Source of the DNA: Macrostomum lignano
Taxonomy: Eukaryota
Direction: 5' to 3'
Length of the DNA stretch: 64,000 nt
Assembly: GCA_002269645.1 (NCBI GenBank)
Contig: NIVC01002087.1
Span: forward strand, 62,001-126,000
In this document: positions 9,662 through 29,248 of the stretch, piece by piece
Layout of the letters: every line of letters begins with the position of its first letter
Numbering within the stretch: the stretch's first letter is position 1
Notes under the pieces: model-generated
Told to the model about the DNA's origin: nothing
Seen by the model: the letters and a program-made list of their open reading frames with translations, nothing else
The model's database searches: none
Translations under genes and position numbers: made by a program

Positions 9662-12154
9662 TCACACTACGGACTTTTTCCCGAAAAAATCTACCGGCGG
9701 GTTCATCTGCGACGTTCGGCGCATAAAGTTTGCCGATGATCGCCGAGCACCGTTGGGCAACGCATTCGACGCCACGGCCTCCTCGGCGTCGCCGCCGCGG
9801 TACAATTTGTACAACTCCTCTACGATTTCCGCCGCGCACACGTCGCCGATATTTTCGGCAATCATCCGCAATAGAAAGATGCCGTCGTGCGACAGGAACT
9901 GGTTAACAAACTGCTTCCGCTTTTGTTTGTCTTCTTTGGATTCGTCGCATGCCGATCGGAGTACCATCAGGTAGCGCTTGACGAACGTCTGTCGGTTCTT
10001 ATACACCAGCAGGCGGATCAGCCAGACTATTGTAGAGCCGGCAGTCAGGGACAAGCACAGGATCGTCCAGAACCAAAGGAATATGTAGATCTTCTCGTTC
10101 AGAAGGTTGACTGGCAAGACGCACTGCACAGACCGGATGTTCCACTGGCCGACGTGTTTCGACGGCACGTCGCAGAAAGTGACCCTGGGAAACACCATGG
10201 TCTGCTCCCACTCGCGGCCGCGGAGCAGATTGCTCATACAGTGCCAGCCGAATGCCAGACTGTCGAAGCCTAAGAATGACTGCATAATAAACAAGTGAGC
10301 AACTCCCACCAAAGCGTACACCATCTTGTTCGTGATGTACAAAGCAAGCAGCATCGTGCCCGACCGTTTGCCGAACCAGAAACAGGGCAGGAACTTGTGG
10401 CAGGCTTGGTGCAGCTTTTGGCGCGGCTCCGTCTTAAATGTAACCTGGCGACCGCAGTCTGGCCCGGTCCTGCTGTCCTGGTAATGACCGCAGCCCCGAC
10501 AGTTGATTGTCTTCTCAATGTGTCTAGCCAGAAAGTTTACCAACTTCTTCTTTCGTTCCTGGTCCATTGTAGCGGTTTCTGCGGCAAACTTTACAATCGC
10601 GTTCGGATTGTAGCCAGTCTGCTGGGCCATGATCTTCCACACCAGGTGAGGTGTGTACACGAGCAGTGCCTCCAGTGCCAGCACGAATGGCACCCATTGG
10701 TAGTAGTCTGAAAAGGATCGGTGAGGTTGTTTAAGCTAGTTGTACACCATCGCAAGCAACGCGAGCTTGTGTCTTTTGGAGATTTTGATGGTGAATGCTA
10801 ATTCAGTTTTCGACGATGTGACTTTTCGAGCTTGTGATGTAGCCCTGTTTCGACGATGGGGTGATTTTTCGAGCTTATGATCGCGACCCATGAGTGTATT
10901 GTCTGTTTATGTGTATGTAATTTTCAAAGCTGCCAAACTGCAGACTATTTTTGTCTGCTACTTTGTCGAGACTATAGGAAACAATAGATGAACTTAATTT
11001 AGCTATGCAAGCAAAGGCTGAAGAGTAGACGTCAATCAAGGGTTAGATTAATTAAAACGAACCAATGTCACAAATATTCTTCTCCACAAAGCAACTATTT
11101 CAAAAATGTTTTATTATAAAATATATTCGTTTAAATATGAACTCTACCGCTTAAAATTGGCACTAGGACTCGCCACCACGCTGTGCAAAATAATTTAAAA
11201 GACTCTGTCAGTTCCCCTCTCGTCTCACGCCACAAGTTGGTTGCTTTACGAGCAGCTGCCATTAACCTCCCGCCTTTGCTTTTTTGTGGCCCAACTTCAT
11301 TCTGAGATATGCTGAGCATTTTTGTATATAGCATCTCGCCATGCGCCTTCGCCTTGAAAATTTGCACAGAAGAAGTATGGAAATTTCTTACTCTACGTGT
11401 GTAGAGTCTGCGTCTGGTAGATGCTTGTTTATTGAATCAAAGAGCATTACAGCAGAAATGTCTAAAGTTTGTATTTCACCATTGATGTGAAAGCTTAGTG
11501 TCAGTATAAAACGACCATCTCTATTTTGACGCTCTACCAAATATCTACCAATTCCAACTTTAATCCACCAATTCCAACTCCAATCTACCAATTCCAACTT
11601 TAATCCACCAATGCCAACTCCAATCTACCAATTCCAACTTTAATCCACCAATTCCAACTCCAATCTACCAATTCCAACTCCAATCTACCAATTCAAGCTA
11701 TAATCTATCGATCCCAACTCCAAATCTTCCAAACTGGCTACTCCAAATCTACCAAAACCGACTCCAGTCTATTCCAGCTCCAACAAATTTAAGGTAACAA
11801 CTGTTGTATCGAATTTCCATCACGGAAACCCCCTGTCCATATCAGTCAAGACTTACTCAGCTCCGACTTTCGCCTCGTGAGCATGTCGGGATGCGCCGGG
11901 TCCATGTGCGCCACGTGATAAGTGTTCTGAATCCAGCAATAGTTCTCAGTGTACTCTTCCCAAGGCCTGGGCCATTCGGGCGGCACCCAGCACTGGATGG
12001 GGGTGAAGATGTACTGCCTCATGGCGATCACGGCCGTGGATATGATGAGGAACGCCCCAGTCCATTGATAGTTGACCTTGTCAGCGAAGTCTTCTGCGTT
12101 AACCAAACTGCCAAATTTGAATTTGGTGAACCGAAAGAAGAAATCGGCGTTCAT
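9662..12154 (-). CDS. inx: Innexin (gap-junction/hemichannel protein), join(12154-11857, 10707-9662), 447 aa
   Basis: EDFADKVNY, RQYIFTPIQCW, YTENYCWIQNTY, spliced NYYQWVPF, FPRVTFCD, CVLPVNLLNEKIYIFLWFW, DGIFLLRMI. Canonical GTAAGT/CAG intron with compatible phase. Confidence 0.95.
11545..11790. repeat. Intronic degenerate tandem repeat (CCAATTCCAACT-based)
   Basis: Repeated ctaccaattccaactttaatccaccaattccaactccaat. Confidence 0.8.
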
Positions 12155-12506: not shown

Positions 12507-13016
12507 GGGTGTTTCTCGAAACTCACGTAAGTTCTATGGTAAGAAAGAAATTTACGTGTAGCGTAAGTTTGCTCGTAAGACGCTTTCTCAAAACTCACTT
12601 AGACTTTGCGTGGCTTACGCTGTTCGTAAGTCGTATCTGAAACGAAAAGTTGCATGTCTATGGTCATAAATCTGTAAATATCTTTACTTTGTCTATCGTA
12701 AGTTGCTTTCGAGAAAGACCCACCTTCGATAAAGTTTAACTTGACTTGGCTTGACTAAAGCTTCACGTACTATGCGATTAGTGCTTAAGTGCGTCTTACG
12801 ACTGATACCGAGCAGTCGTAGGGTTAAGATCAACCTTACGAAAGACCATAGACATACGAACGTTTCGAGAAACAGTCTTTTGCGCAAAGTTACGAACTCG
12901 TAAAGTTGCGATCAATCTTACGCATAGCTAACTTGCGAGCCCTTCGAGCAACCCGTAAGTGTAGCTTACCCAACTTACGTCTATGGCCGATCGTAAGTTG
13001 CTTTCGAGAAAGACCC
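12507..13016. mobile_element. Probable MITE (Harbinger-like GGG termini), CGTAAG/CTTACG-rich
   Basis: GGGTGTTTCTCGAAA at 12507 matches the reverse complement of TTTCGAGAAAGACCC at 13002-13016 (14/15). A second copy of the right end lies at 12707-12721. No TSD recognised. Confidence 0.5.
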
Positions 13017-13033
13017 CCCCCCCCCCGAGGGTC

Positions 13034-13744
13034 AGTAGAATGCATGAGGGGGCTTCTGGGACAAAATTTTTCACCTCCTCCATAATCCGCCTAAATCCAT
13101 CCATATTATCCCTGACAGAATCAGAAAAAAAGGGGGGTCGCACTCGCTCCGAAAACGTCCTCCATAATCCACCTAAATCCATCCATATTATCCCCGACAG
13201 AATCAGAAAAAAAGGGGGGTCGCACTCGCTCACAAAACGTCCTCCATAATCCCATTAAATCCATCCATATTATCCCTGACAGAATCAGAGCATAACAGGT
13301 GTCCTACTTGTTCCGAAAACTTCGAATATAATCCCATTTTAATCCACCGACATCCACCCATAGCATGTTCGAAACAATCAGAAAATAATCTGCATTCTTC
13401 TCCCCACATTCAATTTGCAAAGCGAAACCAGATCCCAAAGACTTTAAATCATCAGCGCAGGGTCCTTACCCTTTGAAAAAAAAATTAAATTCTCAATAAA
13501 AATGTTTCCAGTTGTCTCTCCGGGTTCTTATTATACTCAGCCTAATCCATTGTACAAATCCAAGTACCAATGCAAACTTGAATGCAGCGAATACATGAGA
13601 AAATATTGGCCCAGCGTTGATATCAATGTCCCTAATATTAATCAAGCTCTCCAAAGACACTGGTTTCATAAGTATGGAGTAACCTACGTAAAAGATTACG
13701 ACAGCTACTATAACTTTGCAGAAATCATTAAGCAATTGCGTTAA
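13034..13744 (+). repeat. Left TIR with 82-bp subterminal repeats (starts 13080, 13162, partial 13244)
   Basis: Inverted match to 27844-28545. Outer ~275 bp nearly identical, inner part diverged. Confidence 0.9.
13502..13744 (+). CDS. Small TIR-encoded protein, 80 aa, unknown function
   Basis: ATG after an A-run. The paralog in the right TIR shows synonymous and conservative differences. Confidence 0.7.
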   Translation: MFPVVSPGSYYTQPNPLYKSKYQCKLECSEYMRKYWPSVDINVPNINQALQRHWFHKYGVTYVKDYDSYYNFAEIIKQLR

Positions 13745-14187
13745 AAAACATACTGAGTTCATTTATTCGCAAGTATATTTACATAAAACAGAAGGAAATA
13801 AGGAGGAAAGAGCAGACACTGAGTGTGCAGGGCTATCCGGCTGAGAATTTTCTTCCGCGACGTGCAAGCTAGTTGCAAGGTTGGAAATGAAACAATCCAA
13901 AATCGATATTCTTCGGATTCAGAATAATATTGATTTTCCTCCCGGTCATTTTGTGAACAGCACTTTCCTGTATTGTCAGGAATTGGCACGAGTTTAAAAA
14001 AAATCCTGGAGATCCAGGAAAGTGTTTAGAAGACTACTATGAGTAGCTTACATTGATAAAATCCTGAATAAATCGAGTAAAAAGACTTTCCTGTATTGTC
14101 AGGAATTCCTGTATTGTCAGGAATTGGCACGAGTTTAAAAAAATCCTGGAGATCCAGGAAAGTGTTTAGAAGACTACTATGAGTAGC

Positions 14188-14535
14188 TTACATTAATAAA
14201 ATCCCAGAAAAAAATTGTTGATAACTAAGAAGTGAATCTTCATCAGCAACAAATGATCGGCGAAGTTCGTCAAACACCATTTCGGTTCTCATGGCATAGT
14301 TGCGATCCTGGGTCTCCATGGCCGCTCTTGAACGAATTCGCTGGTTCTCAACTTTTTCATTGAAGAAATTGTGGAGAACTTCTTGAATTCGCTCTGATGC
14401 CTGCTCGTCGGCATCTAATCCTTCAACAAGGCGACCGTCGTGGAGATTTTCTAGGTCGGTCGAGTAGAACGTAATTTTTTTGTGAACTAAAAACAAAGAT
14501 TTAATTAAAATAAGAGATTTTTCAATTCTTAACAC
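14188..14535 (-). CDS. Polinton hypothetical protein (acidic, probably helical; start uncertain)
   Basis: 115-codon ORF from a non-ATG start; no motif recognised. Confidence 0.4.
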   Translation of the reverse strand: MLRIEKSLILIKSLFLVHKKITFYSTDLENLHDGRLVEGLDADEQASERIQEVLHNFFNEKVENQRIRSRAAMETQDRNYAMRTEMVFDELRRSFVADEDSLLSYQQFFSGILLM

Positions 14536-14832
14536 AGGATAGAATTTCAGTAAGTAAAAAAACGAATAAACTTACAACATAATGAAATCAGCAGCCACAA
14601 CGGTGCAGTATTGCGTGACGAAGAACGTGTGCGAGCAAACTGAGCTGAATTTTCTTGCTTGCTTTAACTAGCTTCCGAGCGATCGATTCCCTCCACCCGC
14701 TTCCTTCCCTCCGGTTGTCAAAGCGGAAAGGAATGCACGCGTGGAACTTTGCGCTCCCTCAGAAAATAGCAGTTACCCCCCCCCCTTTCAAAATGCAGCT
14801 GTTGCGCTTGGCTGCGAATAATCTTTCCCGAC

Positions 14833-15333
14833 TCAAGCGCCTCTCTCTACCCCCAGCTCTTTCAGCAGTCTTCCTAATACCTCGTTTGGAGCACACAAAA
14901 TAAACCCTGCTCCCGAGCGTCCGCCCTCTCTCCCAGTGCACCCGCCCTCTCTCCCCAAACACCCACCCTTGGCGTCCATTCCCAACCCTAACTTTGTTTT
15001 ACCAAAAATAACAGCTTTAACTAGCTTCCGAGCGATCGACTCACGAAATCCGCTTGAAGCCCCTATATTGTCTAGTCTCTTAAGCATTTCTTTGTCCCAG
15101 CGATTCTTCTCCTCAGGAAAATCTCTATACTTAACGTCGTGCCACATGCAGACAGAGTCTAGCTCGTTCACAGACTCATGCCCAGGATGTGGATTATTGT
15201 TTTTATCTAGCTGTATTTCAAGTGGATTCAAAGGCCCGCAATATTTATAGCCGGGAAGTGTCCAGCCTTTGTTCGGATGAGGAAGCTTTTCTATCAGTCC
15301 ATGTGAATCTAACTTACCACCAGAGCGTTGCAT
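14833..15333 (-). CDS. Parvovirus VP1u-type phospholipase A2 (adintovirus PLA2X-like)
   Basis: TLPGYKYCGPLN (Ca-binding loop), VNELDSVCMWHDVKY (HD dyad), downstream DKEM. Confidence 0.88.
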   Translation of the reverse strand: MQRSGGKLDSHGLIEKLPHPNKGWTLPGYKYCGPLNPLEIQLDKNNNPHPGHESVNELDSVCMWHDVKYRDFPEEKNRWDKEMLKRLDNIGASSGFRESIARKLVKAVIFGKTKLGLGMDAKGGCLGREGGCTGREGGRSGAGFILCAPNEVLGRLLKELGVERGA

Positions 15334-15363
15334 TATTTTATTTTAAATTTTCTTTTTAAAAAA

Positions 15364-16398
15364 ATGACAGATCAGAAACTTAAAAAACTCTACTACAGCG
15401 ACAAAGGATTCTTTGTAGGCAAAAATGCCGTTAGTAAACTCATGGAGCTGAGTAAGGAATCAAAAGCTACAGTAGAAAAATGGCTCTCTAAGCAGGCTGT
15501 CTTTCAAGTCTATTTCCCACCAGTAAAATTTGAAAGGCCCCATTTCAGTATTTATAAACCTAATGAAGCGCACCAAGCAGATCTTTTGTTTCTCCCCAAC
15601 GACTCAGGCTACAAGTATGCTCTTACAATTATTGACATTGCTTCCAGATATAAGGAAGCTCGCCCACTCAAGACGAAGAAGTCAGAGGTTGTTGCCAGCG
15701 CACTGCAAGATATTTATAAAAACTCTCCGCTCACATACCCCCAAATCTTTATGACCGACCCGGGTAAGGAATTCATGGGTGTAGTGAAATCCCTTATGGA
15801 AAAGAAAAACACAGAGATTCGCTATGGCAGAACAAACTTGCACAGAGACCAAGCGTACGTTGAGAGATTCAATCTAACTCTAGCCAAGAGGCTATTCACT
15901 AAGCAGACAGCGCAAGAACTCAAACTGAGTGCGGGGCAGTACTTTACCAAGTGGACAGACCGGCTCCCCACTGTTATAGAGCAACTGAACAATGAAGTCA
16001 CACGTATGACTGGATTGAAACCGTCCCATGCAATTAAACAAGACACTGTCGAACTTAAGGCATCTCATAAAACAGACAACACACACAACACACACAACAC
16101 ACACAACACAAAACACACCTCGAACTACCCTAAGCTTCCAGGAGTTGAATCACCATACATACTGACAAACTCTGAGTTTCTACGCTTTTTATATCTACCT
16201 GGAGAGCTAGAGAAAGACACCAAAAGAAGAGCTACAGATCCATACTTCAGCCTTGATGTACATAAAATAGACAGACATTTTACCTCCGACTCCGGTGACT
16301 ATTACTTTTTATCTCAAGCCTTTAACCCTAAATCCCCCACGCGGTCATTCACTAGAGCTGAACTCCTAGTGATACCAGCTGACACAGAAATTAATTAA
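15364..16398 (+). CDS. Retroviral-type DDE integrase
   Basis: HQADLLFL, IIDIASRY, TDPGKEF, VERFNLTL: catalytic D, D and E intact, ORF uninterrupted. Confidence 0.95.
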   Translation: MTDQKLKKLYYSDKGFFVGKNAVSKLMELSKESKATVEKWLSKQAVFQVYFPPVKFERPHFSIYKPNEAHQADLLFLPNDSGYKYALTIIDIASRYKEARPLKTKKSEVVASALQDIYKNSPLTYPQIFMTDPGKEFMGVVKSLMEKKNTEIRYGRTNLHRDQAYVERFNLTLAKRLFTKQTAQELKLSAGQYFTKWTDRLPTVIEQLNNEVTRMTGLKPSHAIKQDTVELKASHKTDNTHNTHNTHNTKHTSNYPKLPGVESPYILTNSEFLRFLYLPGELEKDTKRRATDPYFSLDVHKIDRHFTSDSGDYYFLSQAFNPKSPTRSFTRAELLVIPADTEIN

Positions 16399-16414
16399 AA
16401 TATTAAAATAAAAA

Positions 16415-16869
16415 ATGACAAAGATTGAAACCAGAACCATCAATAAACTCAATAAAATCATTGAATCAAAGAAACCAGGTCTTATATCAATAAAAGGTGC
16501 CAAAGTAAAAATCGATCCCACGCAGCAAATACTTCAGTGTAATGAGCAAAGACACAGCATCACAGATGAAAAGTCAGGAGGAATCCTACCATTAGCAGCT
16601 CTTATCCGATCATTGCAGGCGCTGTAAGTGCCGCAGGTGGTGTAGCTGGAGGTGTAGCAACTGCTGTTAAAGCTGGTAATGATAGAGCCCACCAGCTTGA
16701 ATTGCAAAAGATTGCAAGAGACAAAGGTATAACAATTAAGGCAGGAGAGGGCTGCCCCGATTGTGATGATCGTGATGATTGTGAGCATGAAAATTCTATA
16801 AGCAAGTCTGACATTGTCAAAGCAATCATGACACTACACAATGCTGGGTTTACAATAATGCGGATGTGA
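16415..16869 (+). CDS. Small Gly/Ala-rich amphipathic virion protein candidate (1-nt frameshift near 16606)
   Basis: Adding one C at ATCCG gives GGILPLAALIPIIAGAVSAAGGVAGGVATAVKAGNDRAHQLELQK...MRM*, a motif typical of small Polinton proteins. Confidence 0.7.
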
Positions 16870-16992
16870 TGAGGTTTAAAACCTCACTTTATCCAGCTTC
16901 ATAAACCTAAAGCTACTGATAGGATGTAGAAACAGTTCAACTTTTCTATCAGGGTGGTCACCCTCAAATTTTTTTTATATTTTAGAGAAAAA

Positions 16993-19900
16993 ATGCCCAA
17001 AGCCAATCCAGCAAAAGATTTAGTCAACAAATTTTCAAAAGGCGTCTCATTTCAAGACAAAAGTAATTTACTAAGAGAAGCATGTAAACAAAAGTTTAAC
17101 ACCGACCCCGGTCACCTGGGAAGCTATGAAAAACAGTTGGAAATCATCAATCAATTAGAATCCAACCAGTATGTGCCTATACAAAATCCTGCAAAAGAAC
17201 ACCAAGAGAGGAGTCGCAACTTAGTTAACAAATACGAAACTCTCACTGGTGAAAAAGCAAAGTACCCACAAAATAAGCAGGAACAAGAGAAATTAGAGCA
17301 ATTAATCCATTTAAAAGAGTCGGAGCTTGCCATTGAAGAGATTAATTTTGCACAGAGGAAGTTTACAGAACATTACATAGAGTACACAATCCCAATTAAC
17401 GGCACCAACGGCACCACCGCAAACATCTACGACTATAAAGACAGCATCCAATCAGTTGTTGATCACACACTCAAAACACGCAAGACCTTTAAACTACAGA
17501 TATCATTCAAGATTGCGTTTTATATGCCTGCGAAACCCACTGAGCATCTCGAGTATTACATGACAACAAAGGCAAAGCCATTCACCCCTACAGACACACT
17601 GGATCCTTTCCTTCAAGATGTCAATAAGAAAATTGAAGCGTTTACATCCAGAGGTTCCGGATGGGTCGTGGGAGGGATTCAAAGAGCGACTGTCATGGTC
17701 ATGAAATATGACCCACTTAAAGCCTCCTCTTATATAGAGCTCCCGCATAAGCTAGCCGGCAAAAAAGCTTGCATAAATGTTAAAAATAAAGACAATTGCT
17801 GTGCTCTATGGGCAGTTCTTTCTGCACTTTTTAGTGTACCTCACCACCCCGAAAGAACCTCAAATTATCAAAATTATTTCAAACTATCTCATCGAATGCG
17901 AAAAGAAGGGAATCAGGTTTGACAAAGGAGGCTTGGCGATCTCTCAGATCCCAAAGCTAGAAGAAGTGTTTAATAACAAAATTAGAATCACAGTCTTTGA
18001 GTGGAGTGAAAAACTGAGAAAGTTCAACCGGTCAGATGTAGCAAAGACGTTTTAGATCCTGAGGGGAAAAGGCGGACTGAAGTGGATCTTCTAGTGATTG
18101 GTAATTTACTAGAGGAGGCTCACTATGTTTGGATTAAAGATCTTTCAAGACTCATTCACAAGCAGTTGAATAATCATCACGAGGCTGTTGCCATCTGCCG
18201 CTTGTGCCTTAAGCATTACAGTGGACCTGAACGCTTTGAAAAACTAACAGAGCATGAATTATCATGCGAGGATCACCCAACAAACTGCTCTCTTCCTTCA
18301 GCTGAAGAGAAGTATCTCCGGTTTAAGAACTATCACAAGATGGAGAAGCTCCCATTTGTTGTATATGCTGATTTCGAATGCTCAATCATGCCAGAAACTC
18401 AAAAACAAACTCAAACTCAAAAACATGTCCCCAATTCAGTAGCATATGCCTTTATTAATACAAAAGGACTTGTTGAGTATAATTATTTCTTTGGAGAGCA
18501 GTGTGTGGAGCAGTTTATTGCCAGAATGTTAGAGTTGCAAAAAGTGATTAGCACCCTTCAACCTGTTCCAATAATGATGACTGAGGAGGATGAAAGCAAT
18601 TTCCTATCAGCAACTCATTGCCACATCTGCAGGAAACATTTAACTTGCACTAATATTAAAAACCCCACCGTTAGGGACCACTGCCACTTTACTGGGAAAT
18701 TTAGAGGTGCAGCGCATAACACCTGTAATCTAAAGCTAAAATCGAACATTCATGATCTAACGATATTTTGTCACAACGCAAAGAACTATGACATGCATTT
18801 AATAGTTGAAAAAATCGGCATGATTCCAGACATACACCTTGACTGCATCGCAGAGAACAAGGAGAAGTTTAAGTGTGTTGATATTAAACAGGATAATTCG
18901 GGTAAAGGTGAAGGTACAGGTAAAATAAGACTGAAGGATTCATATCAATTTCTAGCTGCCAGTCTAGACGAACTAAGCAAGAATCTAAAAGATGAACAAT
19001 GTACATATACAAAGATGTTTGCAAGTAAAATTACAACAGTGATGAATCATTTAAACTCCTGAGAACCAAAGGCTTCTACCCCTATGAAAATATTACTGGG
19101 TATCACGTATTTGAAGAAGGTTTACCACCACAAGAAAAGTTCTTTTCAAAGCTAACAGACTCTGGAATCTCTGACAAAGACTATGAGCACGCGAAGCATG
19201 TCTATAATTACTTTAATTGTCAAAACTTTTTCCAGTATCACCTGCTTTACCTCTTCACAGATGTGTTTCTGCTGGCCGATGTGTTTGAAACCTTCAGATA
19301 CACCTGGTACACAGCATATGGCCTCGATCCAGCACATTATGTGTCTCTGCCTGCCACTAGCTGGGAATCTTTGCTTAAAATGAAATGGGATCAAGATCCA
19401 GATTGGTACATTGAACTTCTTACAGACATTGACATGTACAATTTTGTCGAATCGTCAAAGCGAGGGGGAATCTCAATTTGCGTTAACAGGTATGCAAAAG
19501 CAAACAATCCCTACATTGAATCTTACAATAAGGAGCAGCCCTCAAACTACATTACTTACTTGGACGCTAATAATCTCTACGGGTGGGCGATGAGTCAAGA
19601 TCTTCCAGTTAGAGATTTTCGATGGCTACCCTCATCAGAATTCAAACGGGACTTTTCATTGGCTGCCATTTATGAGGTTGATGTTTACATTCCACCAGAG
19701 CTTCACGACTATTTCTCTGACTTTCCACCCTTCCCAGAGAACATCAAGTGCCCGAAAATAATCGAAACTCCCAATGATAATAATGGAACTTGGCACCTGT
19801 CAGGAACAGAAAAAGAACATACAGAGAAACTAACACAGAATCTAAACAACAAGACACGTTACAAAATCCATTACAAACTGCTTCAGTATTTTATCTCACT

Positions 19901-20837
19901 TGGTTGCAGGGTCACCAAAGTTCACAGGGCTCTTACATTTACAGAGGAAGCGTGGATGAAACCCTACATTGATAAGAACACCCAGTTTAGGACCAAAGCA
20001 ACCAACGACTTTGACAAGAACCTCTTTAAGTTGGCCAACAACTCTGTCTATGGCAAGACTCTTGAGAATGAGCGGAAAAGAACAAACCTGAAACTTGTTA
20101 CCTCATCAGAGCCTGCTGTTATTCAGGCAAATATGTCAAAGCCAACATTCAAAGAACTCCATATCTTTAATAGCTACTTAGGTGTGATCATATTTTACAA
20201 AACCAAGGTGACGCTGCGCAAGCCGATCTATACAGGTGTCACTGTTCTCGACGAATCAAAACGTCTGATGTACCAGTTCTTCTATGGCATGAAGCAGCAG
20301 TACAAGGATAAAATGAAACTCTTGTACACTGACACAGACAGTTTTATTATGGACATTCAAACAGAAGACATTTATCAGGACATGCTGCAGCAAAAAGATT
20401 TGTTTGACTTGTCTGAGTATGATGAATCTTGCAGGACACAGAATGGCGATCAAGTGTTTGACGCCACTAACAAGAAAGTGATTGGGAAAATGAAGGACGA
20501 GATTGCTGGTGACATAATCACTGAATTCATTGGGTTGAGAGCAAAGTCCTATTTTGTAAAATGTGAGTCGTCAGACCCAATCAAAAAATCAAAGGGAATT
20601 CCGAAACGTGTGGTTAGGAAGGAAATTAATGAAGCTGAATACAGAGACGCCTTGAATTGCAACAAAAAGACATCACATGAGTTCTCAAAGCTACAATCTA
20701 AAAACCACATTATTCACACAATTCAGCAAAAGAAGATTGGACTGTCAGGTGCAGATAACAAAAGATTCATTTTTGATGACAACATTAACAGTCTACCGTT
20801 CGGGCACTGGAGATTAGGTTTAGGAGGTGGAGGTTAG
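16993..20837 (+). CDS. Protein-primed DNA polymerase B (~1280 aa) with inserted endonuclease VII-like Zn module; three 1-nt frameshifts (~17875, ~18010, ~19028)
   Basis: ExoI YADFE, ExoII HNAKNYD, ExoIII YLFTDV, YLDANNLYGWAMS, KLANNSVYGK, YTDTDSF, FIGLRAKSY. The four frame segments join seamlessly. Confidence 0.95.
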
Positions 20838-20889
20838 GAGGTGGAGATTAGGTTTAGGTTTAAGAGAAAGTTTAATAAAACTCAAAAAA

Positions 20890-21290
20890 ATGACGACAAA
20901 TAACTTTCTTGAAGATTTGGCTAACGAACTGGAAATCCCAAACTTTAGAGGAATATTTATGAGGGACACTCTGCCTGATTTTCCTCTAAGAAAAGAATGC
21001 GGCATCATGAACTTTGACACCACTGATAAGCCAGGATCTCATTGGGTTTGCTGGGTGATTGATCCCGATCGCAAGCACAAGTGTTATTACTTCGATAGCT
21101 ATGGGACGGCAGTACCAGAAGAGCTAAGAAATTATATGAAGGGAAAAAAAATAAAAAAATTTATCGCTCAGACTTTATTCTCCAAGGTCTTAGCAGTGAT
21201 ATTTGCGGTGAGCTGTGCATGACTGTTTTGTATGCAATGACCAAAACACGAAAGACCTACAAGGAAATTATTCGTACCTGTGTTTCATAG
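20890..21290 (+). CDS. Adenain-like cysteine protease (1-nt frameshift in A-runs at 21144-21159)
   Basis: GSHWV (His), YYFDSYG (Asp). The -1 frame continues IYRSDFILQGLSSDICGELC (Gln, catalytic Cys) to TAG at 21290. Confidence 0.92.
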
Positions 21291-21293
21291 GGT

Positions 21294-21949
21294 TCATTGT
21301 GCATTTCTCGTTGTCCTTACCGAATTTCTCGTTGTCCTTCTTTCCGCATAATGTTGAAGAACTTTCTCGAGTTCATTTCTCAGCTGACTCATGTCATCAG
21401 TACCGACCATGTTCAAGTTCATTCGAATTGATTGTTCATAAAGATCCTGAATGGTTTTGAACTCATCCTCTGAAATGAACTTATCCTCGATTGCCCTTGA
21501 AATGTACCCTATGATTGATGTGTGCACCCCTTTCTCTTTTACTTGCTTCTCCTGTAGCTGCTTTAGTTTTTTCGCCTGTTTCGCGCTAATGCTCCAGTAA
21601 TTGCTGAAATAAGTCCACATGCAGCACCTACTGAACCAAGTGGAATTGCGATTGGGGCTGTGATGACTGGCAACATTGAGACAGCTGCAGCAGATCCAGA
21701 TAGAACAGACACAGATCCTAGAATCATATTGCTGTAGTCGAAAAATTTACAGTGGCTGTTATAGCGCTTAATTTTCTTTGTGTTGTGGAAAATATTTTTT
21801 TCAAGATCATCTCGCATTTTTTGAATCTCCACTAGTCGAAACTGCTGAGAGTTACAAGTAATGACGGGGTGGAGTTTTTGTTGCTCATATTGGGGTGCAC
21901 TAGGTGCTGTGGGAGCATTCTGATCATAAAGAGAATTTTGAGCATCCAT
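21294..21949 (-). CDS. Polinton membrane protein with hydrophobic hairpin and coiled C-terminus (1-nt frameshift at 21567-21572)
   Basis: FRLVEIQ..KRY, two Gly/Ala-rich hydrophobic segments, then ISRAIEDKFISEDEFKTI in the -1 frame. Confidence 0.75.
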
Positions 21950-22065
21950 TTTTAAGGGAATTTTTTTTAAAAAAATCGGCAACTAGTTGGTGGTGGTTAG
22001 ATTTGTTTTACGTTTGATTGTTTCGTCTGCAGTTGGCGCCAGCAGGTCTCTTCGAATCTACCTAT

Positions 22066-22869
22066 TTATTTGTCTATGCGCTCCATTCTACACTTGATCT
22101 CAAACAAACCGGTTGGCTCACGAAATTTTGGGTTAGTGGTCAAACTGGTTGGCTCACGAAATTTGTGGTCAGTGGTCAAGTCGGTTGGATCACTTATTTC
22201 CCTTGTGGTCTGTGGTGCCTCTTCAACAGGATCAATATCAGGAAGATTGTGTACTCCCTCAAGACGACTGATTCTTCTCAACGATTTCTGCCATTCGGTA
22301 AAAATTAAATCTAAATAGACTTTAATTGCATCAAGTCTTTCTTTAATTCTATCATGCAACGATGTTGACTGAGTCATGAACTCTTCTAAATTCCTCACTT
22401 TACCTGTGTTGGTTGCGACGTTTTCTTTAATTCTATCATGCAACGCTGTTGACTGGTTCATGAACTCTTCTAAATTATTTACTTTAGCTCTGTTTGTGAA
22501 AACTCCTTCTTCAAGAATACGCATCCGTCTATCAGTGGAATTTCTCAGAAGATTAATTGTCGATGTTAACCCATTGATTTGCGAGACTGCCGAAGTTATT
22601 TCTGACCTTAGTTCATTAGTTGCGTGTACAACCTGTACATAAAGCTTATCACTTTCAAACTTCTGCCTAGCTACTTTAAGCCTGAGATCTTCCATGTTTA
22701 TTTGCAACTGGTGCATGGAGCGCTCTAGGGCTTTCAGTCTGTTTTTATTCAGTTTGATCTCTGGGATCTCTTCGTCGCTGTTGATATATCGCCTGTCAAG
22801 GATGGATATTTGAGCTGATGTAAGAGCGCTGTTGCCAGAAATGGATTCACCTGCAAAGTTTATCGACAT
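22066..22869 (-). CDS. Coiled-coil, fibre/spike-like protein candidate, 267 aa
   Basis: Long heptad pattern, duplicated NLEEFMxQSTxLHDRIKE, C-terminal LTTxxKFREPT repeats. Confidence 0.65.
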   Translation of the reverse strand: MSINFAGESISGNSALTSAQISILDRRYINSDEEIPEIKLNKNRLKALERSMHQLQINMEDLRLKVARQKFESDKLYVQVVHATNELRSEITSAVSQINGLTSTINLLRNSTDRRMRILEEGVFTNRAKVNNLEEFMNQSTALHDRIKENVATNTGKVRNLEEFMTQSTSLHDRIKERLDAIKVYLDLIFTEWQKSLRRISRLEGVHNLPDIDPVEEAPQTTREISDPTDLTTDHKFREPTSLTTNPKFREPTGLFEIKCRMERIDK

Positions 22870-22885
22870 CTTTTAATAGCAAATT

Positions 22886-23686
22886 TTAAATTACAGTTCT
22901 TTTTTCTTTGCTGATAATCACAAACTGGTAAGGCTGATTCCACTTGTCATAGCAAAGATTAACGAATTCTTCTTGTGAAATCTTTCTGCTTGAGTTTTTT
23001 GTTGGATTTATGAAATAGGCAGGCGCAATGACCTCATTGTAAAATCTTTTTAACCTGTCCTGTGGAATGGTTGGAAACAGGAGAATCAGATTGCAGTTCC
23101 CGCGAATTGTTTTGTTCGGGAGCTCGAACCAATTCTGTGCAATGTAAATTACATTGCAATTGTTATGTCGCCCTCTTGTAAAATAGTTTTCTATCTGCTT
23201 CTGTGGGCCTGTCATACAATCATCAAAGACGATCAAATGCTTTCTCCCATTTTCTAGCTCATCTGGTTGGGGTAGAAGTTTGGTCTTTGGATCAGCCTGT
23301 GGATCTCCATAGGTGAACACTTTAATGTTCTGCCATTTTTCATTGTCTTTGAGGTGCTTTGCATATTCGGCAGCTACAATTTCAGGGTTACTGGGAAGGC
23401 TCATTTGGTTATTAAAACATGCAATAATGTCCTCTTTGTTCAGCTTGTTTTGAAGCCCTGCAATCAGCATTCTATACTCATCTTGATACAGTGTGGGAGA
23501 GTAGATGTGCAGAGTGTCATAGTCGATAAATCCAGGTCTAAGAAGCATGTTAAAGACTCTGAATGTTTTACCTGAACCTGACGAACCAACAACAATGCAT
23601 CTGAAGTGACTCGGGATTGACTCATGATGAGAAAACTTAATCTGATTACGCGTCCAGTGAGGATTGAAGTCGTTTGAAAAGTCCAT
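22886..23686 (-). CDS. A32/FtsK-like genome-packaging ATPase
   Basis: Walker A GSSGSGKT, Walker B LIVFDD, FTRGRH, IYIAQ, IRGN. Intact. Confidence 0.95.
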   Translation of the reverse strand: MDFSNDFNPHWTRNQIKFSHHESIPSHFRCIVVGSSGSGKTFRVFNMLLRPGFIDYDTLHIYSPTLYQDEYRMLIAGLQNKLNKEDIIACFNNQMSLPSNPEIVAAEYAKHLKDNEKWQNIKVFTYGDPQADPKTKLLPQPDELENGRKHLIVFDDCMTGPQKQIENYFTRGRHNNCNVIYIAQNWFELPNKTIRGNCNLILLFPTIPQDRLKRFYNEVIAPAYFINPTKNSSRKISQEEFVNLCYDKWNQPYQFVIISKEKRTVI

Positions 23687-23726
23687 TTTTTTCTATGATG
23701 AAAAAAATAATTAAATAATAAATAAT

Positions 23727-23910
23727 TTAGATGTGTCATTTCGGGACTTAGATGTGTCATTTTGGGACTTAGATGTGTCATTTTGGGACTTAGATGTGTC
23801 ATTTTGGGACTTAGATGTGTCATTTTGGGACTTAGATGTGTCATTTTGGTACTTAATTGTGTCATTTTGGGACTTAGATGTGTCATTTTGGGACTTAGAT
23901 GTGTCATTTT
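23727..23910. repeat. 21-bp tandem repeat x~9 inside the Polinton
   Basis: (TTAGATGTGTCATTTTGGGAC)n between the ATPase start and the neighbouring gene. Confidence 0.95.
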
Positions 23911-23958
23911 GAGACTAGTCTTGTACCTTTACATTTCTTGTACCCTCGGAAAGTACCT

Positions 23959-24348
23959 TTAGTCAAATTTGAAACCACTTCCTTTTTTAATGCTAGCTCT
24001 CATCTTCTCATAGACTGCAGGGTCCACACTGTCTGGATTTGGGGCCAGCGGGGCCAGCGGGGCCAGTGGAGGTTGAATCTCTTGTTTAGGTGTTACAGTA
24101 TCCTTTATCTTTTTGGCTGCTGTGGCTACACTGCCAGCCGCTTCGGCAACGTTCTTGATGTTCTCTTTGTTCTCTCCAATGACCTTAAAAATCTTGGCCC
24201 CCTGAGCGATCAAATCAGCAAGGCCATTCCCAGAGCGTTCTTTTCTTGGATAGTGGCCTGCAGGGAAAAGTCCAGATCCGCGTTTAATGAGATTAAGTTC
24301 CTCTTTGTCATAGTATTTGTCAATGTCTTTTTCGAAAATAAGAGGCAT
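23959..24348 (-). CDS. Small basic core-protein candidate with three GxG motifs, 129 aa
   Basis: ATG after an A-run; KRGSGL, RSGNGL, KKGSGF. Confidence 0.7.
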   Translation of the reverse strand: MPLIFEKDIDKYYDKEELNLIKRGSGLFPAGHYPRKERSGNGLADLIAQGAKIFKVIGENKENIKNVAEAAGSVATAAKKIKDTVTPKQEIQPPLAPLAPLAPNPDSVDPAVYEKMRASIKKGSGFKFD

Positions 24349-24364
24349 TTTTACTTGAAATAAA

Positions 24365-25576
24365 TTATTTTTTGTTGAACCGCGAAAGCAGAAGCTCTCT
24401 CGCCCTCTTATCGATGTATTTTCTCTCAAGCATTTTGTCCAGGATGTTGACAAATTCTTTTCTATTCTCGTCTTTCATTCCGGTCTTTGCCGCTCCTAGA
24501 AGAACAGCTAACCGCTTGTAGAATTCAGGCATGCCTTTTCCGGAAGAGCTTGGTGGTGATTCGAATGATTGGTCAGAGAAGGATGTTCCTGGTGAGGGTT
24601 GCTGTAGCCTAGGTGTGAATACTCTGTCATTGATTCGCTTCATTCGTTCTGGGGAGAACTGTTCTAATTGTCGCCAAGTATCAGGGTTTGTATCTTTGTA
24701 CTGCGAAACAAGAATCGGGTCTACAGTGTCAAGTTGATCAAGTACTTGTTCAACCTGGGTTTTTTGTTGCTGTGGCGGTGGAGGTTGTTGTGGTTGTGGT
24801 TGTGTTTGTGGTTGCTGCTGTTGTGGTTGTTGTAGTTGTTGTTTTGGTTGCTGTTTTGGTTGTTGTGGCGGTTGTGGTTGTTGTGTTTGTTGTCTTATGA
24901 CCTCTTCTTGATCCGGCAAACCAAACCATTGTTTAAAGTATTTATATTTTTTACAATTGTTCAAGACAATCCCGTTTTCATGTAAAATTTTCAAAACACC
25001 GTTGTTCTTGAGAATGTCTATGTCCCTATCGAGAGCAAAGGTAACAAGATCTTTGTAATTTTTTAGCTGCTTCTCGGATCTTTTTTCCTGATTTTTAGTC
25101 ATGTAATCAAGTAAAGTTTGAGTGAAGGGGATTCGTTTAGTTTCTGCGCCTTTATTGATTGAAATAGTTTCCTTCGTCACTTCAATGTTGTAATCCGCCG
25201 GTTCCCCGGTAATATTTTTTCGCCAGTCGCTAATTCCAAAAATATATTTTCCATCATCCAATACGGGGCCAAAAAAGTTATCCTTCACATTCATCTGCAC
25301 TGGTTGTCCTGGTTGCTGAGCCTGTGGTTGTCCCGGTGAAGATGGGATTTTACCCAATGTGTTTTGCAAGTGGCTCTCTTGAATATCATCAACTGCTTCC
25401 TTCACAGTGTCGAGGTTTTTCTTCGCTTCTGTGTATCCGGGTTTGTGAAATTCGGTGGCTGCTTGGACGAATTCATTGTAGGATTGTTGCTCCTTATTTA
25501 TTAGCCCGGTAACTCGTTTCTCTGCTTGTGCTAGCTTCTCCAATTCAGATATCTGCTGTGTACTTTTTCGCTTCAT
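24365..25576 (-). CDS. Polinton conserved protein, 403 aa, Q/P-rich linker
   Basis: C-terminal GKG...KRLAVLLGAAKTG...EFVNILDKM resembles a helical motif common in Polinton accessory proteins. Confidence 0.75.
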   Translation of the reverse strand: MKRKSTQQISELEKLAQAEKRVTGLINKEQQSYNEFVQAATEFHKPGYTEAKKNLDTVKEAVDDIQESHLQNTLGKIPSSPGQPQAQQPGQPVQMNVKDNFFGPVLDDGKYIFGISDWRKNITGEPADYNIEVTKETISINKGAETKRIPFTQTLLDYMTKNQEKRSEKQLKNYKDLVTFALDRDIDILKNNGVLKILHENGIVLNNCKKYKYFKQWFGLPDQEEVIRQQTQQPQPPQQPKQQPKQQLQQPQQQQPQTQPQPQQPPPPQQQKTQVEQVLDQLDTVDPILVSQYKDTNPDTWRQLEQFSPERMKRINDRVFTPRLQQPSPGTSFSDQSFESPPSSSGKGMPEFYKRLAVLLGAAKTGMKDENRKEFVNILDKMLERKYIDKRARELLLSRFNKK

Positions 25577-25606
25577 TTCTTATTTTATTTTATTTTTAGT
25601 TAAAAA

Positions 25607-26902
25607 ATGAACGACCCACTGACACCAGTTTTCTACAAAATTAACAAGCCTATTTTGAGTGATGATAGCACAATCAAAGCGACTCAGGTAAGAGTTCCCA
25701 GTCAGGAAAATCAGAATGAAACTAATCTTGGTCCTGGTCAAACACTGACATTTACATACAATGGATGTTCGTCTTTGGTTAGTGTGCACAGTCTAAGGAG
25801 CGGCTTCTATATGACGTATCAATTCAAAACTAAAGGAGGCGCAGACGCCGCTCATGCTAATGATGATCTACACAATGCGGATGTCGCACTAACCAGTAAT
25901 TTCTGGGCTTATATGTTCAAAGAGTTTAATGTGTCCAATGGAAGTACAGAGTTGGAAAGAATAGCAAACTTTGGTGTGGTCTATGATACCCAGTGCTTGA
26001 TTGAGAACCCGGATTTTATTCAGATGGGGAGCGGTGCTGGATTCATCCCCAATGAACAGACAGGAGATGAGAATGACCCTGGTTACAAAAAGAGAAAGGA
26101 GAGATACAACTATGCTCTTGTTGGTGAGAACGATGCTGCTAAGAATCCGCTGTTTAGGTCTGTAGATATTTTTGTACCTTTGAGGTTTATGAGTGGTTTC
26201 TGTAATAGTTTCAATCGGTTGACAAGCAACTTTAGCTACACATTTAGACTGACTAGAGATGATCGGAATAGAGGAATTTGGTCGGGGGCCAATCATACAT
26301 CGATGGAGATTAAGCTAACTGGCGTGGAGCTGTACTTAGAAATTATTGAGCCCAAGACTGCACTCAAAGCTGAATACTTGAAGGCGATTGAGAAAGACAT
26401 TGATGTTGCTTATACAGCTTATATGTGCAGAGATGAGCGGAATGACGCAAGACACAATATTTGCATTAAAGAAGGCTCCTGTAGCAATCCAAGGTACATT
26501 ATTGTCACTATGAGGAATACAACTAATGTAGGTAGATATCTACATGGAAACATTCGATCGATTCAACATGAGATCAGTGACAATTTATACCCTGCATTGC
26601 CACAAAATGGGAATTTCTCGGAGAACAAGATTAGTAAGTTTTACAATGAACTGTCGGACTTGGCTGTCAAAGAGAATAACGGTATTGTTTTGACAACATT
26701 GCAGTATAAAAAACTATATCCAATATTTGGTGTTGATGTGACTGCTAGACAAATGCCTACAGACAATAGCCCTGTTAACATTGTGACTAATATCGAGCGG
26801 AAAGAATTTGGTGCCGCAACGGCTGTTGATCTGTTTATTATCTATGCATTTGAGAGGAAGATCAAGGTCAATATGATCAACAACTCGTCTAGTAAAGTTT
26901 GA
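25607..26902 (+). CDS. Major capsid protein (double jelly-roll, hexon-like)
   Basis: 431 aa, beta-rich; DDSTI, VPLRFMSGF, PRYII, LYP, YPIFGVDVTARQ match the Polinton MCP pattern; adjacent to the mCP. Confidence 0.85.
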   Translation: MNDPLTPVFYKINKPILSDDSTIKATQVRVPSQENQNETNLGPGQTLTFTYNGCSSLVSVHSLRSGFYMTYQFKTKGGADAAHANDDLHNADVALTSNFWAYMFKEFNVSNGSTELERIANFGVVYDTQCLIENPDFIQMGSGAGFIPNEQTGDENDPGYKKRKERYNYALVGENDAAKNPLFRSVDIFVPLRFMSGFCNSFNRLTSNFSYTFRLTRDDRNRGIWSGANHTSMEIKLTGVELYLEIIEPKTALKAEYLKAIEKDIDVAYTAYMCRDERNDARHNICIKEGSCSNPRYIIVTMRNTTNVGRYLHGNIRSIQHEISDNLYPALPQNGNFSENKISKFYNELSDLAVKENNGIVLTTLQYKKLYPIFGVDVTARQMPTDNSPVNIVTNIERKEFGAATAVDLFIIYAFERKIKVNMINNSSSKV

Positions 26903-26924
26903 ATAATTTTTTTTCAATAAAAAA

Positions 26925-27782
26925 ATGGAAGCCATAGCCGAAAGACTAAACAACATTGTTTCACACTCTAAGGAGAGCATTCCAATCACTGTAGCGGGTC
27001 GCATTACTGAGTCAAACGGAATCTTCATTCAAAAATTGGAGCAACCACTTCGTTTGGATCCCGAGGCGAATTACCACGTCTATCTCAATGATTTCACTGG
27101 GTGGTCAAATGTTCCCAATGTGACAGCGGAAAATAACAAGTTTTATTACAAATGGAAGCGTACTACAACAGAGGTTGTGATATTTCCTGTCAGCACACAG
27201 AGCGTGGATACTTATAATTACTTCTTGGAGAACGTCTTCACTAAACGAAAGCATTTTGAGATACCGGATGAAAGCAAACCAGAAAATAAACTGTTCCCTG
27301 TTAGATTAACTTATGATCTAACTGTCATGAGAGTTGTCTTGCAAGTTCATAAGGACGCAGAGGTAGAGTTTAAAGATGACACTTGGTATCGCGAGTTGGG
27401 ATTTGAAAAGAGAGTTTATGGTGGCGCCACAGACCAAAGCCCGCTGCAGGCGCCTGGCACTGTTGCTGTGTCCCGGCTAATATCCGGTATGTACTTGGCG
27501 CCAAATATCGCTGACATTGTCAAAGGTTTGAATATATTAATTCGTAGCAATCTGAGCCATGATTGGATATTCAAAGGCAAACGAACCAACATACTTTTTA
27601 ACATTTCAAACTCTGTTGCTGGTGGCAAAATGCTTGTGCAAAAGCCAAACCCCGTGAAAAGAGTGATTCTGAGTAATAGAGAGATACATGAAATCGTTCT
27701 GCAGTTTGAAACAGAGGATGGAGTTGGTGTCGATTTTAACGGGGAAGAGTTTGTGCTAACAATTATTATTGAGAGAATGTGA
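26925..27782 (+). CDS. Minor capsid protein (penton, single jelly-roll)
   Basis: PNVTAENNKFYY, ELGF, ILIRSNL, VDFNGEEFVLTIII match the Polinton mCP pattern. Confidence 0.85.
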   Translation: MEAIAERLNNIVSHSKESIPITVAGRITESNGIFIQKLEQPLRLDPEANYHVYLNDFTGWSNVPNVTAENNKFYYKWKRTTTEVVIFPVSTQSVDTYNYFLENVFTKRKHFEIPDESKPENKLFPVRLTYDLTVMRVVLQVHKDAEVEFKDDTWYRELGFEKRVYGGATDQSPLQAPGTVAVSRLISGMYLAPNIADIVKGLNILIRSNLSHDWIFKGKRTNILFNISNSVAGGKMLVQKPNPVKRVILSNREIHEIVLQFETEDGVGVDFNGEEFVLTIIIERM

Positions 27783-27843
27783 GTCGTCTTCAGACTTGTA
27801 AAATTACGATATAAGCCGCCAGGTACAACCGTGTAGTTGGCTA

Positions 27844-28080
27844 CTACAACTGCCTTATAACTTCAGCAAAGTTATAGTAGCTGTCAAAATTGTTAATGAC
27901 TACTCCGTGTTTTTCAAACCAGTGAGATTTAAGTGCTTGATTAATATTAGGGACATTGATATCAACGTCGGGTCAATATTTTCTCATGTATTCGCTGCAT
28001 TCTAGTTTGCATTGGTACTTACTCTTGTAATTAGGCTCGTGCGCTTTGTAATAAGAACCTGGAGAGACAACTGGAAACAT
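27844..28080 (-). pseudogene. Right-TIR paralog of the 80-aa protein with an in-frame TGA at codon 36
   Basis: Manual translation MFPVVSPGSYYKAHEPNYKSKYQCKLECSEYMRKY*PDVDINVPNINQALKSHWFEKHGVVINNFDSYYNFAEVIRQL*. Not in the ORF track. Confidence 0.85.
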
Positions 28081-28545
28081 TTTTATTGAGAATTAATTTT
28101 TTTTCAAAGGGTAAGGACCCTGCGCTGATGATTTAAAGTCTTTGGGATGTGGTAGCACGTTGCGGATTGAATGTGGGGAGAAGAATTCAGATTATTTTCT
28201 GATTGTTTCGAAGATGCTATGGGTGGATTTGGAGCTGTTATGCTCAGAGCATAAACCCTCAGAGCATAACAGTAGGACACCTGTTATGCTCTGATTCTGT
28301 CAGGGATAATATGGATGGATTTAATGGGATTATGGAGGACGTTTTGTGAGCAAGTGCGACCCCCCTTTTTTTCTGATTCTGTCAGGGATAATATGGATGG
28401 ATTTAAGTGGATTATGGAGGACGTTTTGTGAGCGAGTGCGACCCCCCTTTTTTTCTGATTCTGTCAGGGATAATATGGATGGATTTAGGCGGATTATGGA
28501 GGAGGTGAAAAATTTTGTCCCAGAAGCCCCCTCATGCATTCTACT
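27844..28545 (-). repeat. Right TIR of the Polinton
   Basis: Inverted counterpart of 13034-13744. Confidence 0.9.
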
Positions 28546-29248
28546 AGGGTCAGGCGGACTGACGTCCATCTGAAAAACAATTAGAAATTTCCAAGGGCCA
28601 AATTAAGCTTATATCATAAATACGTATATTGTGGGCGTTGGGTCCGTGGGTTGAATGCAATGACAGATACGCTCGTAAAATCCAATTTCATCTTAAATAT
28701 TTTTATAAAACCATAATTCAAGACAAGTCGTTTCGTCCCAAGCTGCACTTACAAGTTTATCAAGCTAGACTACTTCCATGAACTGCTACCCATCAAACTT
28801 CAGCTGTTTTTCTCTGTTTTTTGTTATAATTTTTTCTAGCGAGAATTTTCCGGATTTAATTCTTGATAAAACTTGTCTATGGCCAAAGCCCCTTTCAGCT
28901 CTGCGAAAAATAACAAGTCCTTGCAAAAAACTGCTGTATTATGAGTGATGTCGTTCTCCGATAGTACTCTTAGACTTTTTCAATTTTATTTGTAATAATA
29001 ATTATTATTAATTAACATGCTTAGTGAAATAACGTTCACTGAAAGGGTGCTGATTTTTTATATTTTATGCCATTCGATACTCGACCCACTCGGAAAAATT
29101 TGTGTCCTTCAGCAAAACGCTTAACTCTGCATTGCTTCAGTTCACCCAGCTGCAAAATGGGTGCCAGCATTAGCTGGGGTAATTGAGAGTGTGTGTGGCG
29201 ACCTCATAGTCCTTGGACTGAACAGCCGTACGCAGCCTTCAGATGCGC

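Follow-up and report, generated by a model that had tools for sequence, protein, structure and literature searches.

The window analyzed here is a 64,000-nucleotide stretch of the Macrostomum lignano genome (contig NIVC01002087.1, positions 62,001 to 126,000, forward strand). It contains a Polinton of 15,512 bp at positions 13034-28545, whose two terminal inverted repeats (TIRs) each carry a version of the same small gene. The two versions are alleles found throughout the element family, which supports an origin by recombination and not an origin as arm-specific paralogs. In the explanation that is probably correct, the terminal genes are pre-existing alleles of two virus lineages that were joined by recombination, and the outer 275 bp were later re-equalised. 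An earlier note on this DNA had proposed two origins for the diverged genes. One was a contracted TIR that freed a duplicated gene to diverge, which fails because both genes are family-wide alleles, ~98% identical to genes of other insertions. The other was a recombinant of two related viruses, and it is borne out by both types occurring on both arms, by mirror elements, and by recombining blocks.

The Two Arms of the Focal Element

The element starts with AGTAG and ends with CTACT. The arms are as the earlier note described them, except that the TIRs begin at 13034, outside the start of 13502 that it had given. The terminal features are as follows.

13028..13033, no strand: left target-site duplication AGGGTC, from the sequence
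13034..13308, + strand: left outer TIR, near-identical to its right counterpart, with three 82-bp sub-repeats (anchor motif at 13077, 13159, and 13241)
13309..13501, + strand: left inner arm, non-coding, with patchy likeness to the right arm
13502..13744, + strand: left TIR gene, 80 aa, intact, allele type A at all five blocks
27844..28080, − strand: right TIR gene, 78 codons, allele type B at all five blocks, premature stop at 27973-27975
28081..28270, − strand: right inner arm, non-coding
28271..28545, − strand: right outer TIR
28546..28551, no strand: right target-site duplication AGGGTC, from the sequence and a junction contig covering 28522-28624

The outer TIRs differ at 5 positions in 275 bp, in agreement with the few sites noted earlier. 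Inward of this region the arms are patchily diverged, as had also been seen, and identity in 50-column windows falls from 94% to ~56% until the open reading frames (ORFs) end. Left-right homology ends with the two ORFs.

The two genes face inward (13502-13744 on the + strand and 28080-27844 on the − strand) and share 60 of 77 aligned sense codons (~78%), with a synonymous divergence (dS) of 0.51, a nonsynonymous divergence (dN) of 0.17, and a dN/dS of 0.34. A DNA-guided alignment gives 61 of 75 codons shared, with dS 0.47, dN 0.13, and dN/dS 0.28. The ~70% protein identity reported earlier was therefore slightly low. Differences by codon position number 13/10/23, or 12/7/19 in the DNA-guided alignment (rough Fisher p of 0.002 and 0.001, respectively), and all gaps are of whole codons. 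The three synonymous changes that had been listed (CCG/CCA, CTT/CTA, and GCT/GCA) are found at codons 7, 26, and 49, and the in-frame stop of the right copy is present. Divergence is thus not neutral across codon positions. This purifying signal is real, but it is also expected for alleles, and the selection probably took place while separate lineages carried the two alleles.

Family-Wide Alleles

An exact 20-base terminus pattern of the family occurs 485 times in the genome. Arm-based genome searches gave 592 and 580 candidates, of which 40 in each case were scored, and the fetched loci, chosen mostly by gene matches and thus not a random set, yielded 153 termini and 43 facing pairs. The gene was present at 143 termini, or 126 after those with the same flanks were merged. 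Among the merged genes, 101 are intact, 16 are broken, and 9 are without a start that could be found. The arms of C14, C739, and C4346 were compared by a word-cover method.

The focal left gene lies 4 bases from the genes in the right arms of C14, C739, and C869 and in the left arm of C869. The focal right gene lies 5 bases from those of five other arms, two of which are one insertion. The two focal genes differ from each other at 53 bases. Twenty-seven elements carry the gene in both arms; it is identical within five of them, and the focal pair is the second most different. The focal gene difference resolves into five blocks, and each of the 10 block pairs shows all four allele combinations. 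Left and right copies do not form clades, contrary to what arm-specific paralogs would lead one to expect: a tree of 110 arms (62 right and 48 left, with 16 of unknown side excluded) has 31 side-label changes against 35.0 when shuffled. For the outer half of the gene the same arms give 38 changes against 34.9. C570 and C317 are mirror elements, in which the left arm has type B and the right arm has type A.

The family has two types of putative minor capsid (penton) gene, which differ by a dS of 1.8-2.1, and two capsid types, which differ by a dS of 1.2-1.3, with dN/dS of 0.06-0.09. Right arms with the focal penton type carry the inner block of type B in 22 of 22 cases, compared with 6 of 38 right arms with the other type. 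Given this association and the depth of the divergence, type B likely arrived together with a divergent capsid module. All four combinations of ATPase and capsid types occur among 14 loci (9, 3, 1, and 1).

The usual home of the TIR gene is the right (penton) end, and the left arm carries it in some copies only. Eight of nine gene-less termini are left arms. A second set of 15 pairs was picked by terminus alone, and in its 12 long elements the gene is on the penton-side arm in 12 of 12 and on the identified integrase-side arm in 2 of 8. The extent of TIR identity varies by copy from ~300 bp to more than 2.3 kb. Some elements have very long inverted duplications: penton-side sequence is found at both ends of C2140 and C276 (>2.3 kb) and of C869 (1.6 kb).

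Other layouts were also seen. In C975 the long inverted duplication places the PLA2 gene plus integrase at both ends. An inverted piece (173-541 bp) of the alternative penton type sits in four left arms (L069, L070, L085, and L079) and is likely a relic of earlier TIR expansions. Three derivatives of 640-870 bp have both termini and no gene match (C32:1150965-1151833, C124:22982-23697, and C289:58541-59180).

Probable End Correction Along the TIR

Likeness between the two arms of one element fades from the tip inward. In the 27 elements, the ratio of within-element to between-element distance from outside to inside is 0.19, 0.29, 0.38, 0.38, 0.72, and 0.83, where the outermost segment is 135-70 bp before the start codon and the innermost is the end of the gene. 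The outer allele block is left-right discordant in 5 of 25 elements against 12.4 when shuffled, and the inner four blocks do not differ from shuffled. The first 60 bases are identical within 19 of 35 elements, compared with 40 of 1190 cross pairs. Such a gradient is expected from end correction after recombination, and it agrees with the premise of the earlier note that the tips are homogenised. Among 136 termini, the closest to the focal right tip is the left tip of the same element (5 differences, with 9 for the next best). Its next relatives are mostly left arms of other copies, and its nearness to left tips hints at left-to-right copying.

Panhandle repair is a proposed route for protein-primed genomes, and the part of PMC11886824 consulted describes direct evidence as lacking. 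The same gradient would arise if the left arm of one genome crossed over with the right arm of a sibling genome. In the proposed mechanism, TIR expansions would copy the right-end gene onto the left end, and recombination among replicating genomes would exchange arms and modules. Tip correction, by panhandle repair or arm crossover, would then reach a different depth in each genome before insertion by the integrase. In the focal element it likely equalised only the outer 275 bp.

Alternative Explanations

Several observations weigh against this explanation. The inner half of the gene gives 21 side-label changes against 30.3, with 0 of 300 shuffles as low, so this half is partly tied to side, though far from forming two clades. 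Type B is right-biased, as an old paralog pair later blurred by conversion would also be; its exact motif is at 25 right, 5 left, and 6 unplaced arms among 36 sites examined (38 in the genome). No second insertion with the all-A/all-B combination of the focal element was seen among the copies examined. The 27 elements were collected through gene matches, not at random, and in the terminus-picked set the ratios of three usable elements are not monotonic (0.63, 0.83, 0.19, 0.31, 1.11, and 1.05). A matching target duplication is missing in 8 of 43 pairs of the first set and in 4 of 12 long pairs of the terminus-picked set. Of the 43 pairs, 31 have a perfect 6-bp duplication, 4 have one mismatch, and 8 have two or more, which means that post-insertion rearrangement or chimeric assembly happens in the family. 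Finally, no read or contig extends from the flank through a focal arm into the gene, which leaves a small chance of a chimera.

An ancestral TIR contraction could have left paralogs diverging on the left and right under selection, with later inter-arm conversion spreading the types. The dN/dS of ~0.3 between the focal genes, the right bias of type B, and the arm signal of the inner half all fit such a history. It is nonetheless unlikely. Type A is about equally common on right (25) and left (21) arms among the sites examined, the nearest relatives of the focal left gene are mostly right arms (three right and one left), and the gene is missing from most terminus-picked left arms. Mirror elements exist, and type B goes with the penton type. 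The arm signal of the inner half and the right bias can also be explained by physical linkage with the adjacent penton gene.

The present layout could also postdate insertion, if host gene conversion or a double crossover with another copy had swapped the interior of an arm or of the element. The pairs with non-matching target duplications do show later rearrangement (or misassembly), and in C716 the inverted identity extends into the flanks. A single crossover is excluded by the perfect focal duplication, and a tip-anchored gradient across many copies would not be expected from ectopic conversion. In addition, C14 and C739 have different target duplications and the same asymmetric layout, which argues that asymmetric genomes were copied before insertion. 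This history is somewhat less probable again than the paralog one.

Least probable is an assembly artifact in which two loci were fused to form the window. In its favor, the repeat is multi-copy, many contigs end inside elements, and no spanning reads were found. Against it, the 6-bp duplication matches at both ends, the right junction contig (28522-28624) has no differences in 4 of 4 runs, the depth of the stop allele is close to that of the junction in two runs, the focal penton type and the end of a type-B gene are linked on a 1011-base contig of another run, and an asymmetric element that was assembled in two contigs has identical left arms (900 of 900).

The stop codon of the right gene is present in 1 of 143 arms examined. 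The depth attributed to the stop allele, obtained by subtraction and hence only suggestive, is 46.5, 90.6, 20.2, and 27.1 in four runs, against junction depths of 46.4, 18.5, 9.6, and 32. The two depths are near each other in two runs, and in the other two the stop-allele depth is 2-5 times the junction depth. This stop and the breaks in the polymerase are likely decay of the focal copy alone. Contigs from four presumed-RNA runs cover the TIR gene; they give no indication of strand or level, and a splice-like junction leading into it was not found in these four runs.

The Terminal Protein

The earlier note called the terminal protein uncharacterised. It has no clear homolog, although a weak resemblance to segment II of RNase T2 was found. 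No real homolog was identified in a set of 5.8 billion proteins (with the single sequence P0001, and with alignment A1 among the longer proteins), and none was identified in viral contigs, phage records, or NCBIfam. A search of representatives gave three matches, all of them repeat proteins aligned in several stretches, and these were rejected.

Three sources point to RNase T2; all are sequence-based and not independent of one another. In the ESM Atlas, RNase T2 clusters score 0.90, at a recognition value that falls short of the trusted level. The Pfam family PF00445 matches 10 of 26 copies over profile positions 66-101 of 188, with a best E of 0.0027 and 18 bits against a cut-off of 26. A search of the PDB with an intact type-B copy gives only three matches at E <=10, all of which are T2 proteins (E 0.014, 0.033, and 0.033). 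Type-B copies align over ~36-44 residues that end in a segment II-like HWFEKHG. This form is present in 33 of the 115 arms matched, and HWFHKYG is present in 71; the commoner allele thus has Tyr in place of the aligned histidine of KHG. In comparison with a host paralog, the type-B score is reached by 23 of 3000 shuffles and the type-A score by 190 of 3000.

Other results speak against the link. A profile of alignment A1 matches no PDB sequence, and the single sequence P0001 has no Pfam match at E 0.1. Alignment by hhalign with four host RNase T2 rows gives a probability of 1.9% from shallow profiles. Structure models are of low confidence (pLDDT 63.6 and 55.4), and four fold searches with them gave no match.

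RNase T2 catalysis is described as requiring the histidines of segments I and II in the parts of PMC2720953 and PMC10452627 consulted. Segment I is absent from a six-frame motif scan of 13034-28545, which makes the TIR protein unlikely to be a nuclease by itself. On the same scan, the idea of a split enzyme, with its segment I encoded in another part of the element, was rejected. Recent capture from a host RNase T2 is also unsupported, with 33% identity over 39 aa to one paralog and no match to the other. The RNase T2 proteins of M. lignano match exons in the host genome, one of them at 100%.

On this sequence evidence, the chances that the protein derives from the segment II half of RNase T2 appear about even. 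A stand-alone nuclease would be very improbable, and a small non-catalytic accessory is the likely assignment. T2 proteins show activities independent of catalysis (PMC10452627, in the part consulted), and for this reason a putative binding or decoy role is favored as the likeliest mechanism. The combined proposal is doubtful: that a captured segment II half of RNase T2 is maintained by selection as a terminal non-catalytic decoy or RNA-binding accessory with His and Tyr forms, and that the copies are a frozen record of panhandle correction with readable tract lengths.

One insertion of the family, with the same flanks in three contigs (C4945:2334-23466, C2606, and C3540), interrupts a host RNase T2 gene. 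It sits in an intron made of tandem repeats, with the exon for segment I on one side and the exon for segment II on the other. An empty version is present at C195:555294-564900. This location is odd given the resemblance of the cargo, but the observation is post hoc and concerns a single event.

Gene Content and Flanks

Between the TIR genes, the element contains the following features.

13745..14832, no strand: left-inner segment, present in a subset of family members, no homology to the right arm
14833..15333, − strand: PLA2-like gene (PF08398, E 2.8e-12)
15364..16398, + strand: rve integrase (PF00665, E 1.6e-8, above cut-off)
16930..20837, + strand: likely protein-primed B polymerase, in three open stretches (16930-17919, 18010-19059, and 19029-20834)
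20824..21222, + strand: likely adenain-type protease (PF00770, E 0.003, below cut-off)
22886..23686, − strand: A32-like packaging ATPase (PF04665, E 4.4e-6, above cut-off)
25607..26902, + strand: double jelly-roll major capsid protein, the rarer of the two capsid types of the family (PF21738, E 9.5e-9, above cut-off)
26925..27782, + strand: putative minor capsid (penton) gene, named by position and size, no Pfam match

The polymerase match to PF03175 (E 1.8e-4) is below cut-off and is confined to the middle stretch; the size and position of the gene fit. The middle piece (18340-19062) also has an endonuclease VII-like zinc motif (PF02945, E 4.1e-5). The element is without a match in Rfam.

An innexin-like host ORF (window 11846-12154, − strand, PF00876, E 1.5e-20) lies ~0.9 kb left of the element. 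The left flank (12560-13020) is a high-copy host repeat, with 97-100% identity at the 40 places scored of 201 candidates, so no empty allele of the focal site could be identified. Long satellite arrays of 14-bp and 15-bp units occupy 31500-49700 of the window. The 14-bp arrays at ~31.6-34.1 kb and 48.0-49.7 kb are mutually inverted and 97-100% identical.

Comparison with Known Systems

As a Polinton the element is ordinary, and processes of the type proposed, recombination together with end correction, are already known. Features above cut-off or seen in the element are the TIRs, 6-bp target duplication, rve integrase, ATPase, and double jelly-roll capsid. The gene set of Polintons/Mavericks is given in the consulted parts of PMC8097293 and PMC8502044. 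Together with the adintoviruses that have an Alpha-type virion module, they share with the focal family the TIRs, 6-bp duplication, rve integrase, ATPase, and major capsid gene, and probably also the protein-primed B polymerase, protease, and minor capsid gene. The PLA2-like gene matches a feature of that module (PMC8502044, in part). TIR size in vertebrate Mavericks is likewise described there as variable, at 46-1,447 bp (PMC8097293 and PMC8502044). Unlike these, the focal family has a coding gene in the variable part of the TIR that segregates as recombining alleles.

RNase T2 was not found among the matches listed in the Polinton literature searched, a scope with most subscription journals and supplements outside it. 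Within the literature searched, again with supplements outside its scope, the genus Macrostomum together with adintovirus gave no match, and the species name Macrostomum lignano is absent among the matches listed. RNase T2 proteins (PF00445; human RNase T2, 3t0o; Actibind, 3d3z) are 25-40 kDa, compared with 78-80 aa here. If the link is true, the gene is an accessory type unseen in that literature.

What is new here is a nucleotide-level gradient in a natural population and, possibly, a half-RNase T2 cargo. The case is a caution that, when the two TIRs of an element carry diverged genes, these can be alleles rather than paralogs, and that TIR length belongs to the individual copy. With its hundreds of members, the family provides natural snapshots from which one could measure the reach of end correction in a protein-primed genome, a process for which direct evidence is described as lacking (PMC11886824, in part).

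The EMALEs (endogenous mavirus-like elements) of Cafeteria likewise have TIRs of 0.2-2.3 kb, TIR regeneration after truncation, and recombinant module exchange (PMC8547959, in part). They differ in being virophages of a protist, and the part of that source consulted describes no allele gradient along the TIR. For adenovirus and phage PRD1, the part of PMC11886824 consulted proposes the same panhandle for restoring end homology in a protein-primed genome; here, unlike in those systems, correction would be read from a natural population of integrated copies. In mosaic Polisuviricotina, replication and capsid modules are likewise reassorted, with exchange inside genes too (bioRxiv 10.64898/2026.10.13.758929 and PMC11296320, both in part). 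The parts of those studies consulted concern distant viruses, whereas the mosaic described here is within one family in one host genome and is resolved to nucleotide blocks.

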